From: Sulfurimonadaceae bacterium
GTDB taxonomy: Bacteria > Campylobacterota > Campylobacteria > Campylobacterales > Sulfurimonadaceae
Direction of reading: 5' to 3'
Assembly: GCA_041562555.1 (NCBI GenBank)
Contig: JBFEXS010000026.1
Coordinates: forward strand, 1 to 21,364
Length of the DNA: 21,364 nt
Both the position numbers and the translations under genes were made by a program. Numbering within the stretch: the first letter of the stretch is position 1; each line of letters opens with the position of its first letter. Of the stretch, positions 1,995 through 20,906 are shown one piece after another. The notes below the pieces were generated by a model, which worked only from the letters and a program-made list of their open reading frames with translations, had not been told where the DNA came from and did no database searches.

Positions 1995-2501
1995 TTACTG
2001 AAACAGTGATATCCTCTTTTCTTTTAATCGCGTTATGTACACTTTAAGATCGTCGCAATCCCTTACTTTTATCTTCTCGCCTTCCACCGTCACTGACCTT
2101 ATATGTTTGTTGATCTTAAAGTCATCCTCATAAGTGGGTGGTGTTTCCAGACAATATTCGGATAGTTGTATAAGACTGTCCTCATCCTGGCAAAGTTCCT
2201 TAAGTGATCTGGACAGTTTCAATACATGCTCATACTGTTTTTGGAAAACATCAAGGCTTTCATCGCCGCCTGATCCGGATTGAAAGTCCAAGACTTTATC
2301 TTTAAAACCCTTTGCCTGGTATATGTTCAAAGCCTCATTAAGAAGCTCAACCTCTTTGATGGTAGTATGCATCAGGTATGTTTGTGTATTATCCACTTGA
2401 AAACCTGTTTGCTTGTTTACATAATCAAAACAAAAATACAGTTCACAGTCATGATAGGGTTTTCTATCATTGATGTGAAAGGTAGGTATACTGTCGTTCA
2501 T
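1995..2501 (-). CDS. Hypothetical protein (about 168 aa), probably co-transcribed with the NifU-C gene
   Basis: Long ORF. I placed the start at ATG 2501 (alternative GTG 2507), just after the NifU-C stop at 2510, to avoid the overlap shown in the ORF track. Confidence 0.7.
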   Translation of the reverse strand: MNDSIPTFHINDRKPYHDCELYFCFDYVNKQTGFQVDNTQTYLMHTTIKEVELLNEALNIYQAKGFKDKVLDFQSGSGGDESLDVFQKQYEHVLKLSRSLKELCQDEDSLIQLSEYCLETPPTYEDDFKINKHIRSVTVEGEKIKVRDCDDLKVYITRLKEKRISLFQ

Positions 2502-2509
2502 GTCCACGT

Positions 2510-2785
2510 TTATACGGCAAAAACGCGGATATCTTCTGAAAGTTTGGTCTGCAAGATGTTTTGAATCGACATCAAGGTTCCTCCTGACGAAGGACAGGCA
2601 ACACAAGCCCCTTGATACTCGATATACACTATAATCAGTCCATTCTTCTCTTCTACATTCACCAACTCTAGGTCTCCGTTGTCTCTATGTAGAAATCCTC
2701 GGATACTCTCTTCGATAATCTCATCAATAGCATTAATCTTTTCAGTAAGGCTTCTAGTATTAAACTCTGCAGTCTGTTCACTCAT
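2510..2785 (-). CDS. NifU C-terminal (Nfu-type) domain protein, Fe-S cluster carrier
   Basis: IRGFLHRDNGDLELV...IEYQGACVACPSS..TL..IQNIL is the Nfu CxxC signature. AAAGGA RBS precedes ATG 2785. Confidence 0.9.
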   Translation of the reverse strand: MSEQTAEFNTRSLTEKINAIDEIIEESIRGFLHRDNGDLELVNVEEKNGLIIVYIEYQGACVACPSSGGTLMSIQNILQTKLSEDIRVFAV

Positions 2786-2960
2786 ATTTATTCCTTTGTG
2801 GATGGGCAAAAGCCCAAAATGACTAAGGAAGTTTACAACTTTATTGTTTGAAGTCACTTAAAGTAAAAACCATATGTTTTATGTCAGTAAACAACAAGTG
2901 AATAAGCCAAGCAGAACCTGTAAAGAGTATAATGCATCTAACGAACAACAAGGGAATAAA

Positions 2961-13533: not shown

Positions 13534-13863
13534 TTAGTCGTCGTTATGCAGTTGTCCCGTAAACTCAAAACCAAACTTCATCTTATTGGCTATCTCTTCT
13601 TCGACTTCTTCGATCTGGTCTTCTGTTCGGCTCTCTACCTGATCGATAAAAAAGCGATAATGGTCTTCACGTCTAAAGGTATGTACCTTATACTCTTTGT
13701 CTTTGCCATGCTCTTGCTGAAACTTTTCAAGGCCATCTTCCCATGCAAAAGTCAGCTCACACTCAATCGTTCTCTCTTCATCCTCATCAGGAAGGGTATA
13801 CTTGAATTCCACTTCTTCGTCATAGGTAATTACTTCGTAAACCTTTTGTGCAGTCGTTGACAT
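13534..13863 (-). CDS. Hypothetical acidic protein (109 aa)
   Basis: GGAG RBS and an upstream GGCTATAA promoter-like motif. Confidence 0.8.
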   Translation of the reverse strand: MSTTAQKVYEVITYDEEVEFKYTLPDEDEERTIECELTFAWEDGLEKFQQEHGKDKEYKVHTFRREDHYRFFIDQVESRTEDQIEEVEEEIANKMKFGFEFTGQLHNDD

Positions 13864-13989: not shown

Positions 13990-16077
13990 TCATTCATGGG
14001 ATATGTCCATCAGCTCTCTGACAAGTTTTTTGATGAACGGTCGTTGCACCCCATCTATGTCAACTGTCTCCAAATCAACACTGAAACGACAATGTTCTCC
14101 CATCGGTGTTATAACGGTAAGATCGTCTGCACCGGCAGCTGATGCCATTGTATGCCGAAGGAAATGCGGACCATATCTGCGTTCGGGCAGTTGGGTGTTA
14201 ATGAACGTCTCGATATTTTCCCTGTCACTAATCTCACCAAAGGCTGAAGCGGTAAACCAAGTACCATGAGGGTGAAACAATGACGCAGCAGCATGACCGT
14301 CACGTCTATCGACACAATCCAGGAACTTCATCAAGAGCAACCTCTTTGAATGACGTGGTGCATAACTCGTATGCAACAGTTCCTTGGCTTGATTCGAGTT
14401 AGGCTCTATCAGTTCTTTCTCATATAGATTCTGCACATCACGGTTCTCAAATGAACGTCTTAGCGGTGAACCTTTGTCTATCGCATAGATGGCCTGCATG
14501 CGTTTTTGTAAAATGTGAGGGTCCATCGATTTTGGCTCTCCTCCTCCGCCCAGACAACCGCCGACGCAGGCCATCACTTCTATGGCGACAAACTCCTCCC
14601 GCCATGTCTCACTCTCGAGCATCTCTTGTGCTGCAGCTATCCCGTTACAGATAGCCACTTTTCCTACACCCGGGACCTCTGCTGTTTTAACAAGTTCCTT
14701 AACACCGCGAAGCTGATGCCAATCGACCTTGATATTGTCGCTGTGACCGGCAAGATGTAATGCCGTTCGCACCATGGCTTCCATAACACCCCCTGATGCA
14801 CCAAATATCTGAGCAGCTCCGGTACTTTCGCCCAAAGGATTGTCAAACGTGCCGTCAGTTGGCAGCGAACCAAAGGCAATACCTCTTGCCCGTATCATTC
14901 GTGCCAACTCCCGTGTAGTAATACTGTGATCTACGTCTTCGGATACGCCGGGTCTTTCGGATTCATCTTTTTTTGCCGTACAGGGCATCACGCTTACCAC
15001 ATAAGGCTCGACATCTCCTTCAGCAAACTCAGGGCCCAAAGAACGGGCAAAAGCTCCGCGTTTTGTCAGTGCCCCATGCATCTGCTGGGGTGATTTGGTC
15101 GTACTGAGATGGGGCAGGATGTCAGGCCGGTTGATCTCGACCCAGTTCACCCATCCCGGACAGCACGAGGTAAAAAGGGGTAGATCTTTGCCTCTTTTGA
15201 GTCGGGACAAGAACTCGGCACCCTCTTCCATGATGGTAAGATCTGCCGCAAAATTAGTATCAAACACATAATCGAAACCCAAAGCCCTGAGTGCATTGAT
15301 CAGCCTCCCCGTACTGACAGTCCCGGGCTTCATCCCAAACTCTTCACTGATGGCAATACGCGTTGCAGGAGCTACTTGGACGACTGAAGTCCGTCTTCCG
15401 TTATCGAGTGTATGCAGGACATCATGCCAATGGGGTGATTCGATCAGTGCGCCTGAGGGACAGACCAGTGTGCACTGACCGCAGGAGATACAGTTGGTGT
15501 CTGCTAAAGACTGGTCAAACACCGTAACAGGCAGACGATCCGACCCTGACTCGGCAAAGGCAATGACATGTTGTTTCTGTCCGGCTTCACCACATGCTTC
15601 AACGCATAGACCGCACTCTATACATTTTGACAATTCACGCCAAATGCTCGGTGAAGTGTGATCCAGCAGTTTATGTTCAGGATGTTCTGCTGAGCCCATC
15701 GGGATCTTTTCCCAGCGGTCTTCCCACTGGTTTTCATTCACCAGGTTTTGAAATTGACAATTACCGTTGACTTCACAATGAATACAATCATTGGGATGAC
15801 GGGCAAGCAGGAATTGTGCATCTGCTTTTCGAAACTCTTGCAGTTCCTTGGAATCCGTTTGTATAACATCACCATCTTCTGCCTTGGTCACACAGGCGGG
15901 TTGGGGATGTGAACCGTTATTGACATCAACCAGGCACATCCGACATACGGCATGTGATGGCAGACGGGGATAGTAACACAGAGTGGGAATATGTATACCG
16001 GCAGACCTTGCGGCATCAAGTATGGTAGTGCCCTCTTCTACCTCGACCGATCTATCATTTATGGTAAGTTTGATCAT
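13990..16077 (-). CDS. hydA: Monomeric [FeFe]-hydrogenase (group A, CpI-like M3 architecture) with a C-terminal SnoaL/NTF2-like domain
   Basis: [2Fe-2S] motif C-x10-C-x2-C-x13-C. His-ligated cluster HPNDCIHCEVNGNC. Two [4Fe-4S] motifs, CIECGLCVEAC and CISCGQCTLVCP. H-cluster motifs FTSCCPGW, MPCTAKKDE and EVMACVGGCLGGGGEP. Fused small-subunit region ending LLHTSY. GGAG RBS precedes ATG 16077 (alternative start 16092). Confidence 0.95.
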   Translation of the reverse strand: MIKLTINDRSVEVEEGTTILDAARSAGIHIPTLCYYPRLPSHAVCRMCLVDVNNGSHPQPACVTKAEDGDVIQTDSKELQEFRKADAQFLLARHPNDCIHCEVNGNCQFQNLVNENQWEDRWEKIPMGSAEHPEHKLLDHTSPSIWRELSKCIECGLCVEACGEAGQKQHVIAFAESGSDRLPVTVFDQSLADTNCISCGQCTLVCPSGALIESPHWHDVLHTLDNGRRTSVVQVAPATRIAISEEFGMKPGTVSTGRLINALRALGFDYVFDTNFAADLTIMEEGAEFLSRLKRGKDLPLFTSCCPGWVNWVEINRPDILPHLSTTKSPQQMHGALTKRGAFARSLGPEFAEGDVEPYVVSVMPCTAKKDESERPGVSEDVDHSITTRELARMIRARGIAFGSLPTDGTFDNPLGESTGAAQIFGASGGVMEAMVRTALHLAGHSDNIKVDWHQLRGVKELVKTAEVPGVGKVAICNGIAAAQEMLESETWREEFVAIEVMACVGGCLGGGGEPKSMDPHILQKRMQAIYAIDKGSPLRRSFENRDVQNLYEKELIEPNSNQAKELLHTSYAPRHSKRLLLMKFLDCVDRRDGHAAASLFHPHGTWFTASAFGEISDRENIETFINTQLPERRYGPHFLRHTMASAAGADDLTVITPMGEHCRFSVDLETVDIDGVQRPFIKKLVRELMDISHE

Positions 16078-16131
16078 ATCCGCACACTCCATCCAAAGAT
16101 ATTAAACTATGCTTTTTTCTGACAATATCTC

Positions 16132-16171
16132 ATTGTAACCAGAATCAACTTGAACAATCTTTGAAGCAATC
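16132..16171 (-). promoter_or_regulatory. Putative hydA promoter with an upstream direct repeat
   Basis: GGTTACAAT -10 on the minus strand (16132-16140). TTGAACAATC and TTGAAGCAATC at 16150 and 16161 (plus strand) are 11 bp apart. Confidence 0.45.
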
Positions 16172-16305
16172 AGCAAAATAATTTCACTCCTGTACCTACA
16201 AAGACAAGAATGATAAGATCATTTCAACAAAATGCTATTTAATAAGTCTGATTTTATGCAGAAAGTGTTCTATGTTATGATTGCACAGACATTGATTAAA
16301 GGCTG

Positions 16306-17632: not shown

Positions 17633-17711
17633 AATATAAAGTGCTATAAAAAGCACCCTGTTCCCTTTAATTTTAAGAGAATACAATAGTATTAAAATAA
17701 ATAGAGGTGTG

Positions 17712-19136
17712 ATGATGAAAGTTTTATTGACAGGTGCCAATGGATACATAGGAAGACGTTTAAAACAGGCTCTCACACATGAAGATATCTCATTACGCCT
17801 TCTTGTACGTAACCCCAAAAGCCTCGATCCAGGTTTAGATGCCGAAGTGTTTCAAGGAGATACTTTTAATCCCGCTTCACTCGAAAATGCACTCGAAGGT
17901 GTTGATGTTGCTTACTATCTTGTACACTCCTTAGAACAAAAGAACTATCAAGAACTTGATAAACTCAGTGCTCAAAACTTTTTAGATGCTGCCATAAAGC
18001 AAGGTGTGAAGCGCATCATCTATCTCGGCGGACTGGGTATTAAAGAAGAAGCCAGTAAGCATCTTCTAAGTCGTATCGAGACTGGCGAGGTCCTTTCAAG
18101 CAGACCTGATAAGATAGAAACAATTTGGATACGTGCAGGTGTCATCATCGGATCAGGAAGTTCAAGCTTTGAGATCATCAGACACCTGACAGAAAAACTA
18201 CCTGTTATGGTCACCCCAAAATGGGTAAATACACTTGCTCAACCCGTAGGCGTAGATGATGTTATTGAGTATCTCAATGCCTCAAAAAATATAGAGATCC
18301 GAGGCAATTTAATTGTAGATATAGGCAGTGAGCAAATGACGTATAAAGATATGATGTTACGCTGTGCCAGTGCATTAGGTCTGCGACGTTGGATCTTCCC
18401 GCTTCCTATACTTACGATAAAACTATCATCCTATTGGCTTAATCTTTTTACCCCAGTGCCTTATACTGTCGCTCGTTCACTCATCGAAGGACTCTCATCA
18501 GAGGTTATCATACAAAATGACAATGCAAAAAAGTACTTTCCTGACATACACCCTATGGGCTTTGAAGATGCCGTTAAAAAAGCCATACAGGAGATGGAAG
18601 AGAATCAAGTCTTTAGTCGCTGGAGTGATGCCGGTGGGGTGTATGACCAATGGGAACTTCAGCACAAAAACGACCCCTCTTCATCTGTTCTGATGGATAG
18701 ACAGACGCTGCCGCTCGATGGTATCCCTAGTGAAAATGTCTACCTTACTTTTTGCTCCATTGGTGGTAAACAAGGTTGGTTTGGTTACGACTGGCTGTGG
18801 GAGATACGAGGATTAATAGACAAACTCTTAGGTGGTGCAGGTATCAATCGAGGACGAAGAGACTCACAGACGTTACGTATAGGAGAGAGTGTAGACTTTT
18901 GGAGAGTGGAGAACTTGACTGAGAACAAAAGACTGCTACTCTATGCACAGATGAAAGTCCCAGGTAAAGCCTGGCTAGAGTTTACCATCAAAGAAGATAA
19001 GCTGGTACAAACAGCCTACTTCTATCCGCGAGGACTTTGGGGAAGATTATACTGGTATGCACTGATTCCCGTACACTATTTAGTCTTTAGAAAGATGATA
19101 AAAACCATCCTTAAAAATGCTCATGCATTAAAGTGA
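17712..19136 (+). CDS. YbjT-like atypical SDR / NAD(P)-binding oxidoreductase with a C-terminal DUF2867-type domain
   Basis: KVLLTGANGYIG Rossmann motif, AYYLVHS, RIIYLGGL, IIGSGSSSFE. C-terminal IGGKQGW, DFWRVE, AQMKVPGKAWLEF and PRGLWGRLYWY. The start could be 17709, 17712 or 17715. Confidence 0.92.
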   Translation: MMKVLLTGANGYIGRRLKQALTHEDISLRLLVRNPKSLDPGLDAEVFQGDTFNPASLENALEGVDVAYYLVHSLEQKNYQELDKLSAQNFLDAAIKQGVKRIIYLGGLGIKEEASKHLLSRIETGEVLSSRPDKIETIWIRAGVIIGSGSSSFEIIRHLTEKLPVMVTPKWVNTLAQPVGVDDVIEYLNASKNIEIRGNLIVDIGSEQMTYKDMMLRCASALGLRRWIFPLPILTIKLSSYWLNLFTPVPYTVARSLIEGLSSEVIIQNDNAKKYFPDIHPMGFEDAVKKAIQEMEENQVFSRWSDAGGVYDQWELQHKNDPSSSVLMDRQTLPLDGIPSENVYLTFCSIGGKQGWFGYDWLWEIRGLIDKLLGGAGINRGRRDSQTLRIGESVDFWRVENLTENKRLLLYAQMKVPGKAWLEFTIKEDKLVQTAYFYPRGLWGRLYWYALIPVHYLVFRKMIKTILKNAHALK

Positions 19137-19535: not shown

Positions 19536-19928
19536 CTATTTGGTCCACACATAATTTGTCGTATTCTTTTGTTTTGCTTTAAACAGATCCTCTACAAAAT
19601 GGTTTTTTTCATAAAACATGTTCAAACCACTGCTGACTGACAGCAAGGTGATCGTATCAAACTCTTTTTTGAGACACTCGATCAGATAGGTTCCCAGACC
19701 ATTCTTCTGATAATAGGCATCGATGGATATTTGACTGATAGAAATCTTTTTTAAAAGCGCATCTTTTATCCTGTAGTCAATAAACCCGATGGCATTAATA
19801 TCCAGATATAAATCGAGTCTATTGCTGTATGTACTTTGATGCGAGTAAGAGGTTGATATATTACTTCGGTTTTGCTGTGCATGGATGAGGGCACAGGAGT
19901 CCTGTAGTGCTGCATTAACATTTGTCAT
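19536..19928 (-). CDS. GNAT-like protein (130 aa)
   Basis: ISIDAYYQKNGLGTYLI (motif A) and FYEKNHF (motif B). GAGGA RBS precedes ATG 19928. Confidence 0.75.
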   Translation of the reverse strand: MTNVNAALQDSCALIHAQQNRSNISTSYSHQSTYSNRLDLYLDINAIGFIDYRIKDALLKKISISQISIDAYYQKNGLGTYLIECLKKEFDTITLLSVSSGLNMFYEKNHFVEDLFKAKQKNTTNYVWTK

Positions 19929-19979
19929 GATAGGCTTCCTCAGAGTGAGCACATCGGTCAAAGACGGGCGTGCATCGTG

Positions 19980-20192: not shown

Positions 20193-20906
20193 CTAAAAAA
20201 CATCATAATAAGTCAACTTATTATCAATTATCTTTAACTCTTGTAGCATTTTAAACATATGAAGGTACTCATGTTTAGTATAACTAGTCGAGGTTGCTAA
20301 AAACACATCTTCGATTAAAGCTAAAACATTTTGCGGGTATTTAGATATTTTATCAATATCTTCCCATGACACACCAAAACCTTCTATAACCTTTTTATCT
20401 GTATGGGCTATTTGTGTATCTCTGATATTTTTCAAAGATTCAAGTTGCGATTCAAAGTTTTTCTTATTTTTTTCATTGTCTATTTTTAGCTTTTTAACTA
20501 AATCTTGTACAAACCTATCATTAATTCTTGTAAATACCTTTTGACCATTTTCCATTTTTTCAACAACAGTCTCTTTATATTTATTAAAATCGAAATCTAG
20601 AAAAATATGACTCTCTGGATTAAAACCTAATCCAGGTAATTCATTTCGGTTTGATTCAATAAAGTTAATGATACTATCTAATGAAACACTGTTTCTATCA
20701 TATACCTTAGATAAGGATAGCAACAACTGATCTATACATTGTAATTGAATAAAAGAAAAAAAAGAACGATATTTAGATGTATTTATTTCCTCATAATAAT
20801 GAGAAATTATTTCTTCCATCTTAAGAGATATATGAAACTTATAAATATTATCAGATAACTTTCTTGTATAGTCATATAGTTTGTTTTGTTTATCATTGTA
20901 ATCCAT
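20193..20906 (-). CDS. HEPN-domain protein (AbiU2-like), putative RNase/defence protein
   Basis: All-helical pattern with LLLSLSKVYDR.SVSL and LKNIRDTQIAHTD (R-x5-H). Very AT-rich: two sampled 60-nt lines had 13 and 14 G+C. Confidence 0.75.
   Translation of the reverse strand: MDYNDKQNKLYDYTRKLSDNIYKFHISLKMEEIISHYYEEINTSKYRSFFSFIQLQCIDQLLLSLSKVYDRNSVSLDSIINFIESNRNELPGLGFNPESHIFLDFDFNKYKETVVEKMENGQKVFTRINDRFVQDLVKKLKIDNEKNKKNFESQLESLKNIRDTQIAHTDKKVIEGFGVSWEDIDKISKYPQNVLALIEDVFLATSTSYTKHEYLHMFKMLQELKIIDNKLTYYDVF

Follow-up and report, generated by a model that had tools for sequence, protein, structure and literature searches.

An NTF2-fused orphan [FeFe]-hydrogenase in a Sulfurovum-like campylobacterotal genome belongs to a stand-alone proteobacterial family found without HydE, HydF, and HydG

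The window analyzed here is the whole contig JBFEXS010000026.1 (C26; 21,364 nucleotides, nt) of the genome bin GCA_041562555.1, a Sulfurimonadaceae bacterium (2.10 Mb in 137 contigs, 88.9% complete, with 4.3% estimated contamination). Its minus strand carries an open reading frame (ORF) at positions 13990 to 16092 that translates to 700 residues. The ATG at 16077 (MIKLT...) agrees with the N termini of 74 aligned homologues, which places the gene at 13990 to 16077 and gives a protein of 695 residues plus stop; the in-frame ATG at 16092 would add 5 residues, and residue numbers below follow the 700-residue numbering. From its profile matches and aligned ligands, the product is predicted to be an intact group A [FeFe]-hydrogenase of CpI-like (M3) layout, with the ligands for five Fe-S clusters complete and an NTF2-like domain fused at the C terminus. 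It is an orphan, predicted to be soluble and cytoplasmic, and its Fe_hyd_lg_C match is the only one in the host genome. We are highly confident of four points taken jointly, namely, the identity of this protein as a stand-alone group A enzyme, its membership in a Pseudomonadota family without HydE, HydF, and HydG, the travel of the gene as a single gene, and its horizontal acquisition into a native contig.

The domains, all encoded on the minus strand, follow one another in the order known from CpI. An N-terminal [2Fe-2S] ferredoxin-like domain (Pfam Fer2_4, residues 5 to 81, positions 15850 to 16080) carries the invariant cysteines Cys39, Cys50, Cys53, and Cys67, and, from residue 5 onward, the alignment matches the N terminus to the beginning of cytoplasmic HydA chains of known structure. 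Pfam and the alignment together place a His-ligated [4Fe-4S] domain (NADH-G_4Fe-4S_3, residues 88 to 121, positions 15730 to 15831) with H99, C103, C106, and C112, and two [4Fe-4S] ferredoxin motifs (residues 150 to 219, of which Pfam covers 150 to 216; positions 15436 to 15645) with C157/160/163/167 and C201/204/207/211. Between the His-ligated cluster and the first of these motifs lies a His/acid-rich, family-specific insert, GSxEHPEHxLxDHTSPSIW (residues ~133 to 156, positions 15625 to 15696). The H-domain (Fe_hyd_lg_C, residues 236 to 517, positions 14542 to 15387; PF02906, E value of 6e-80) contains the motifs TSCCPGW, MPCTAKKDE, and EVMACVGGCLGGGGEP and is followed by a small-subunit-like segment (Pfam Fe_hyd_SSU, residues 526 to 580, positions 14353 to 14517). 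The remaining residues, 581 to 700 (positions 13993 to 14352), form the C-terminal NTF2/SnoaL-like domain, recognized from a sub-cutoff SnoaL_4 match, an AlphaFold2 (AF2) domain model, and Foldseek. Among the NCBIfam models, the protein passed TIGR02512, "[FeFe] hydrogenase, group A" (427.4 bits against a cutoff of 405.95). The nearest model, the A6-type NF040763, gave 657.1 bits and was not passed (cutoff of 765), and neither was the clostridial ferredoxin hydrogenase model of the CpI type, NF040762 (459.1 bits, cutoff of 900), despite the shared Pfam domain order.

The best solved relatives by sequence were HydA1 of Thermoanaerobacter kivui (8a6t, 464 bits), HydA1 of Acetobacterium woodii (7q4v, 421 bits), and CpI (4xdc, 344 bits), and in a Foldseek search the full-length fold model also matched 8a6t and CpI best. 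The alignment to CpI is gap-free through the site, with an offset of +11. It pairs CpI C299 and C300 with C310 and C311, C355 with C371, and C499 and C503 with C509 and C513. Lysine K358 corresponds to K374, M353 and M497 to M369 and M507, E279, E282, and R286 to E290, E293, and R297, S319 to S330, and F417 to F430. We take the signature-motif names and the site roles of C299, K358, M353, M497, E279, E282, R286, and S319 to be those usually given for CpI; several of the aligned site residues also appear as named CpI variants in PDB titles. The initial annotation had quoted the motifs TSCCPGW, ADLTIMEEGAE, LSTTKSPQQ, APA, MPCTAKK, and ACVGGCLGGGGEP, and all of them are present.

We additionally compared these positions across a family alignment of the window protein and 74 full-length homologues, from which six truncated loci were omitted (L024, L033, L034, L056, L090, and L097). 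The four H-cluster Cys ligands (C311, C371, C509, and C513) are invariant in 75 of 75 members. Of the 21 CpI H-cluster and proton-path positions, 18 are invariant in the 75 sequences and the other 3 are conserved in 74, against a background of 34% invariant positions in the H-region (hypergeometric P value of 8e-7), indicating that the active-site residues are under strong selection. Four changes are nonetheless fixed in the family, V233T, F/Y360D, T420S, and Q509E, at positions where the five aligned solved enzymes show little or no variation, and two of them place new carboxylates, D376 and E519, beside the site. The third motif had been noted initially as deviating from the common form. The E for Q (GGGEP versus GGGQP) is a family trait, invariant in 75 of 75 members, and the V after AC stands where four solved enzymes have P and CpI has H, so that P is not universal at this position either. 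The window copy keeps all 194 family-invariant columns and departs from columns conserved at ≥95% in 6 places (family median of 4, maximum of 9), and as judged from these counts, it is not decaying.

The C-terminal tail and the insert set the family apart from the solved enzymes. On the window protein, SnoaL_4 scored 22.8 bits over residues 587 to 652, just below its cutoff of 24, and SnoaL_2 scored 16.6 bits (cutoff of 27); some family fragments pass SnoaL Pfam cutoffs, for example, P0123 at 33.8 and 33.2 bits. When folded alone on a 75-row alignment, the tail gave an AF2 model of three helices and a curved sheet with a predicted local distance difference test score (pLDDT) of 88.2. Foldseek returned 99 PDB matches to this model at an E value of ≤0.001, with ketosteroid isomerases, SgcJ, and other NTF2-like folds on top; the top matches had template modeling (TM) scores of 0.5 to 0.6 and 13 to 22% identity. 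The model thus predicts an NTF2-like alpha+beta cone fold for the tail. A complete HMMER search with the tail, covering 1.84 billion representatives, found only 46 relatives, 25 of which were scanned for domains. These comprised 18 [FeFe]-hydrogenase pieces, 1 protein with F-domain parts only, 2 SnoaL-only proteins, and 4 without a relevant domain (one of them a cytochrome c). Because 18 of the 25 scanned relatives are hydrogenase pieces, the tail appears to be an NTF2-like lineage seen almost only on this enzyme, and among the 25 scanned there was no independent family hinting at its function. The ESM Atlas returned only generic SnoaL/NTF2 clusters for the tail, at 0.85, which is below the lead threshold. 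The full-length model is confident for the H-domain and the tail but not for the loops that bind the clusters. The His/acid-rich insert faces gaps in the alignments to 8a6t, 7q4v, and CpI and has low pLDDT in its region; its DHTSPSIW portion, which served as the locus search pattern, is invariant. The insert as a whole, rich in His, Glu, and Asp, is almost invariant and might provide an additional metal site or a loop for docking.

A protein search listed at least 120 relatives of ~690 residues with 74 to 77% identity and 97 to 99% query coverage, the named ones among those listed including Thiomicrorhabdus, Thioalkalispiraceae, Thiobacillus, Burkholderiaceae, and others. A search of species genomes (one genome per species) gave 180 relatives, and the locus analyses cover the best 80 of these 180, all titled as alpha-, beta-, or gammaproteobacteria or as Pseudomonadota. 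Members across the three proteobacterial classes are 67 to 80% identical. Cultured carriers include Thiomicrorhabdus, Hydrogenovibrio halophilus, Thiomicrospira, Hyphomonas, Thioclava, and Janthinobacterium, as well as Duganella, Pseudoduganella, Variovorax, Aquabacterium, and Paraburkholderia. In an all-against-all ORF comparison of the 80 loci and the window, only the hydrogenase gene was common, and the best true neighbor cluster occurred in 9 loci. The 147 nearest-neighbor ORFs (one per side at the 80 loci) were a miscellany in which Pfam recognized no NuoE/F-like protein, no HydE, HydF, or HydG, and no other hydrogenase subunit. A conserved partner gene or operon was therefore rejected. 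The initial annotation had reported no maturase, NuoE/F-like, or membrane-anchor gene nearby, and none was found among the 24 window ORFs scanned; however, the solitary setting that it considered unusual is not so, since this gene is one member of a large, highly conserved stand-alone family.

Upstream sequences revealed little that is common to the whole family. An FNR-type box was considered and rejected: at ≤2 mismatches it occurred in 21 of 75 upstream regions and in 14 of 74 downstream controls, and at ≤1 mismatch the counts were 2 and 4, respectively, with no enrichment. A k-mer comparison found no family-wide upstream motif, only leaders common within subclades. These leaders, 30 to 60 nt upstream of the start, are conserved within several subclades (L023, L027, L042, and others; L029, L037, and L041; L028 and L040), and the leader k-mer CTCGGCAC was present in 10 of 75 upstream regions versus 1 of 74 downstream regions. 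On this evidence, the 5' region of the hydrogenase gene seems to travel along with it. A copy in a Novosphingobium bin (L089:787-2859) is almost identical to one in a Brevundimonas bin (L092:10001-12073), with end branches of 0.002 and 0.003; the isolate names of the two bins share a prefix. This near-identity reflects either a very recent interfamily transfer or one contig type binned twice.

[FeFe]-hydrogenases are O2-labile enzymes of anaerobes in which the active site is considered to require HydE, HydF, and HydG. No maturase reached its cutoff in the 2.10-Mb host genome: HydE reached at best 41 bits (cutoff of 254.6), HydF was matched in its GTPase part only (112.6 bits, cutoff of 325.55), and HydG had no match in this 88.9% complete assembly. 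The whole-genome search thus extends the initial observation that no maturase lies nearby, and the question raised with it, whether SnoaL-fused homologues systematically occur in genomes without hydEFG, was answered in the affirmative. HydG was over its cutoff in none of 74 carriers (0 of 24 and 0 of 50, with the six short loci left out), and HydE and HydF were each over their cutoffs in none of 24. The models performed as expected in the positive controls, as 2 of 14 control genomes passed each maturase model and G039, the one genome with a canonical H-domain (41%) among the relatives first compared, had HydG at 351.5 bits (cutoff of 312). The Hyp machinery was considered as a substitute maturation route and rejected, since only 5 of 24 carriers have HypD and the host has none; a search of the host genome for a [NiFe] large subunit was likewise negative. 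The host had been proposed to be microaerophilic, and an O2-using metabolism is supported by a cbb3 oxidase subunit, CcoN, at 658 bits (cutoff of 583). COX1 (haem-copper oxidase) was found in all 24 carriers tested.

The hydrogenase gene differs from the rest of its genome. Its G+C content (GC) is 49.5%, compared to 42.7% for the genome and above all 300 random 2.1-kb windows, with the rise coinciding with the ORF, and its tetranucleotide distance is 0.037, compared to 0.025 ± 0.004. In contrast, contig C26 taken in its entirety has a composition ordinary for the bin (tetranucleotide rank of 59 among 124), with its left flank at the mean. None of 16 same-genus genomes and none of 8 other same-family genomes had an H-domain match, and none of 400 other genomes drawn across the phylum had a family member, eight of them having only distant canonical H-domain matches of 39 to 45%. 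The flanking genes (SelO, a 109-residue-protein gene, GNAT, and the aconitase end) are 69 to 97% identical and syntenic in same-genus genomes. SelO, beside the hydrogenase, is 69 to 84% identical there, and its named relatives are Sulfurovum and other Campylobacterales. In the same-genus genome G010, the order is the aconitase end, GNAT, ~1.5 kb, the 109-residue-protein gene, and, further on, SelO. In the window, the 109-residue-protein gene and GNAT are separated by the hydrogenase gene, a TPR gene, and an NmrA/DUF2867 gene, and GNAT and aconitase are separated by an AbiU2 gene.

In a quick maximum-likelihood tree, supported by the Shimodaira-Hasegawa-like approximate likelihood ratio test (SH-aLRT) only, the window sequence nests in a gamma-/betaproteobacterial group without a well-supported sister. 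Its end branch (0.35, median of 0.13) is the longest in its half of the tree. Sequences of the three proteobacterial classes are mixed with one another, giving 12 label changes where 2 would suffice. The horizontal acquisition proposed at the outset is thus borne out by the GC and tetranucleotide outlier, the absence from relatives, the native syntenic flanks, and the nesting in proteobacteria: these sequence data indicate that a Sulfurovum-like member of the Campylobacterota acquired the hydrogenase copy horizontally, into a variable spot of a native contig.

The edges of this variable spot are the 109-residue-protein gene on the downstream side (13534 to 13863, minus strand), which is 83 to 87% identical in same-genus genomes without the hydrogenase, and the GNAT gene (19536 to 19961, minus strand), which lies ~1.5 kb from it in G010. 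The gene had been read as monocistronic, and this was only partly upheld: the upstream gene is divergent, but the downstream native gene is on the same strand, 126 nt away, and the promoter and terminator scans at the hydrogenase gene stayed at shuffle level. The AT-rich intergenic region before the divergent TPR gene (16078 to 16305; 28 to 29% GC in 200-nt windows) is presumed to be the promoter region. Mobile-element scars were considered and rejected, as only short, chance-level repeats surround the gene.

Several other genes of the contig deserve mention. An AbiU2/HEPN-type abortive-infection gene (20193 to 20906, minus strand; PF18734, E value of 2.5e-13) separates GNAT from the aconitase end, in sequence of 27% GC. 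The regions examined in five same-genus genomes gave no tblastn match to it; one of these genomes is G010, in which the aconitase end and GNAT are near neighbors. The gene represents another insertion, the second, within this variable region. The NmrA-like NAD(P)-binding protein fused to DUF2867 (17709 to 19136, plus strand) occupies the same variable spot and has a GC unlike that of the hydrogenase. This gene is patchy, being present in 3 of 12 same-genus genomes (58 to 61% identity) and in 3 of 8 other genomes of the order, and is another accessory gene of the hotspot. The host has three paralogues of SelO/YdiU, a protein adenylyltransferase (C26:11305-13011, C2:40983-42332, and C19:18338-19669); the one in the window is 34 to 36% identical to the other two, and the same multiplicity was seen in same-genus genomes. 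About 12 kb from the hydrogenase, at 311 to 1981, a hemerythrin-domain gene sits with a Crp/FNR-type regulator (cNMP-binding and HTH domains) and a gene for a receiver domain alone, a group that resembles a cluster for sensing O2 or redox state. A 203-residue ORF without a Pfam family (1995 to 2606, minus strand) overlaps a NifU-like gene (2510 to 2857, minus strand) by ~100 nt in another frame; both may be real, with one start perhaps miscalled, as they had tblastn matches in G007 at 45% and 52% identity.

The function of the protein is less certain than its identity and history. We lean, at a little under even chances, toward real H2 chemistry reached by an undescribed maturation route rather than toward a redox protein lacking the cofactor; the whole explanation, covering identity, family, transfer, and mechanism, has in our judgment an even chance of being right. 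Because the residues that serve only the di-iron site and the proton supply are strictly conserved, an H-cluster-like center would be present and used. Electrons would pass from a low-potential carrier (ferredoxin or flavodoxin) through the four accessory clusters to the H-cluster-type site, and protons would arrive via the conserved E290/E293/R297-S330-C310 path, so that the enzyme could make or consume H2 when O2 is scarce. The di-iron part would be assembled by a route without HydEFG. The NTF2-like tail would act as an accessory specific to this family, possibly for cofactor handling, O2 protection, or ligand binding. In its strongest form, this proposal means that O2-respiring bacteria own a HydEFG-independent route to a working hydrogen-converting center, that the tail is an assembly, gating, or O2-protection module, and that one gene suffices to confer the trait, the last point because of its single-gene mobility across phyla. 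We consider this strongest form rather unlikely. Within it, the center could be a true H-cluster built by undescribed enzymes or a CO/CN-poor variant center using D376, E519, and the free C310.

Several observations weigh against H2 chemistry, and many of them speak for a hydrogenase-like redox protein without a di-iron subcluster, one that would carry only the accessory clusters and the H-site [4Fe-4S], like apo-HydA or Nar1/NARFL. Such a protein would put the pocket and the proton path, perhaps together with the NTF2-like domain, to use in other chemistry, electron transfer, or sensing in aerobic cells; we regard this as a serious possibility, though not a probable one. We know of no chemistry that gives the CO and CN ligands without HydG, and HydG is missing in 74 of 74 carriers, HydE and HydF are missing in 24 of 24, and all three are missing in the host, where 88.9% completeness leaves the absence unproven. 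With HypD in only 5 of 25 genomes (the 24 carriers plus the host), the [NiFe] route is no general substitute. Every carrier tested (24 of 24) respires O2, as judged from its haem-copper oxidase. The fixed V233T, F/Y360D, T420S, and Q509E changes next to the site, including the carboxylates D376 and E519, suggest that the pocket may hold something else, and the NTF2-like fold often serves small-molecule binding or catalysis. Nar1-type proteins, however, have lost the di-iron pocket residues and kept the cluster cysteines, whereas the pocket residues are invariant here. The counterparts of K358, C299, M353, M497, E279, E282, and R286 are unchanged over three proteobacterial classes, and their only known role is at the di-iron site; moreover, no conserved neighbor points to an alternative substrate or partner. 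According to the available text of Hansen and Perner (2016; PMC4744846), three Thiomicrospira carrier species did not consume H2 under the conditions used, in an assay that covered uptake only. An older view, recorded in PMC4967309, is that alphaproteobacterial HydA without maturases either is inactive or does something else. In contrast, PMC11216029 states that most archaea lack conventional maturases, that their hydrogenases were active after semisynthetic maturation, and that some maturase-less eukaryotes make H2, and it makes the case that archaea and some eukaryotes mature the enzyme by an alternative pathway.

The gene might instead be a functionless passenger in this host, transferred without the donors' means of activation and not yet decayed. 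No second copy turned up in 16 same-genus and 400 other phylum genomes, and the gene sits in a variable spot beside other inserted genes. We consider it improbable, as the frame is intact, no invariant column is lost, and the 6 departures lie within the family range; the long end branch points to long residence or an unsampled donor, with the ORF kept nevertheless, and the donors lack maturases too, so that nothing known was left behind. A binning or assembly artifact, that is, a hydrogenase from a co-assembled proteobacterium or a chimeric assembly at both intergenic borders, might be suspected from the 137 contigs of the bin, its 4.3% estimated contamination, and the proteobacterial closest relatives. 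It was rejected on synteny and composition and is very improbable, since the 21-kb contig is typical of the bin and the genes on both sides, 71 to 97% identical, keep the same order in same-genus genomes.

The family is thus a tightly conserved clade in which every catalytic residue is retained, although the gene stands alone in at least 75 O2-respiring genomes without known helpers, and it is mobile enough to have crossed from Pseudomonadota to Campylobacterota. Cultured carriers (Thiomicrorhabdus, Hyphomonas, Janthinobacterium, Duganella, Variovorax, and Thioclava) make a maturase-independent H-cluster route or a new use of the scaffold directly testable. If active and air tolerant, the enzyme would be of interest to hydrogen biotechnology. 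In surveys of oxic marine and soil metagenomes, matches to "group A [FeFe]-hydrogenase" may in large part come from this family and should not, without evidence, be taken to indicate fermentative H2 production.

Members of the family have been met before in Thiomicrospira/Hydrogenovibrio; T. chilensis DSM 12352 (L046) has a full-length copy 73% identical to the window protein. Hansen and Perner (2016; PMC4744846), the only published mention of the family that we found, cite Greening et al. (2015) for the assignment of these enzymes to group A1, state that no biochemical data exist, and call the function "uncertain." The available text of that paper has no mention that we found of the NTF2-like domain, of maturase absence, or of the spread of the family, and a literature search of papers apart from their supplements found no description of the NTF2 fusion or of a family-wide lack of maturases.

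Among characterized systems, HydA1 of the HydABC complexes (T. kivui 8a6t and A. woodii 7q4v) gave the best sequence and fold matches, with Foldseek rank 1 at 40% identity, and it shares the order of F-domain clusters, H-domain, and fused small-subunit segment. However, the window protein has the NTF2-like C-terminal domain, the His-rich insert, and GGGEP and scores below the A6 cutoff. Its gene is without HydB/HydC (NuoF/NuoE-like) neighbors both in the window and among the 147 neighbor ORFs of the 80 loci, and the hosts of this family, unlike those of HydABC, respire O2 and lack HydEFG. CpI (4xdc and 3c8y) is similar in its single-chain M3 architecture, with cluster ligands and proton path aligning residue for residue and 34 to 36% identity in fold alignments. 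The differences from CpI are the fixed V233T, F360D, T420S, and Q509E, the C-terminal domain, and the host, as CpI belongs to a strict anaerobe with maturases and this family to aerobes without them. Eukaryotic Nar1/NARFL are further hydrogenase-type genes in genomes without HydEFG. As far as the available parts of the sources describe them, the same holds for the maturase-less HydA of Rhodospirillum rubrum (PMC4967309) and the archaeal enzymes (PMC11216029). In contrast to these maturase-less homologues, the window family is a separate, tight clade by its architecture, its NTF2-like fusion, and its full retention of the pocket. Finally, CbA5H of Clostridium beijerinckii (8zqd and 9f46) is a weaker match (264 bits), is matured by HydEFG, and carries an SLBB domain at its N terminus but nothing NTF2-like at its C terminus. 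It is, however, also a group A enzyme with an accessory domain and a TSCCP loop cysteine, which can shield the distal iron according to the available part of PMC13397568, and CbA5H is a possible model for how the window family might survive O2.

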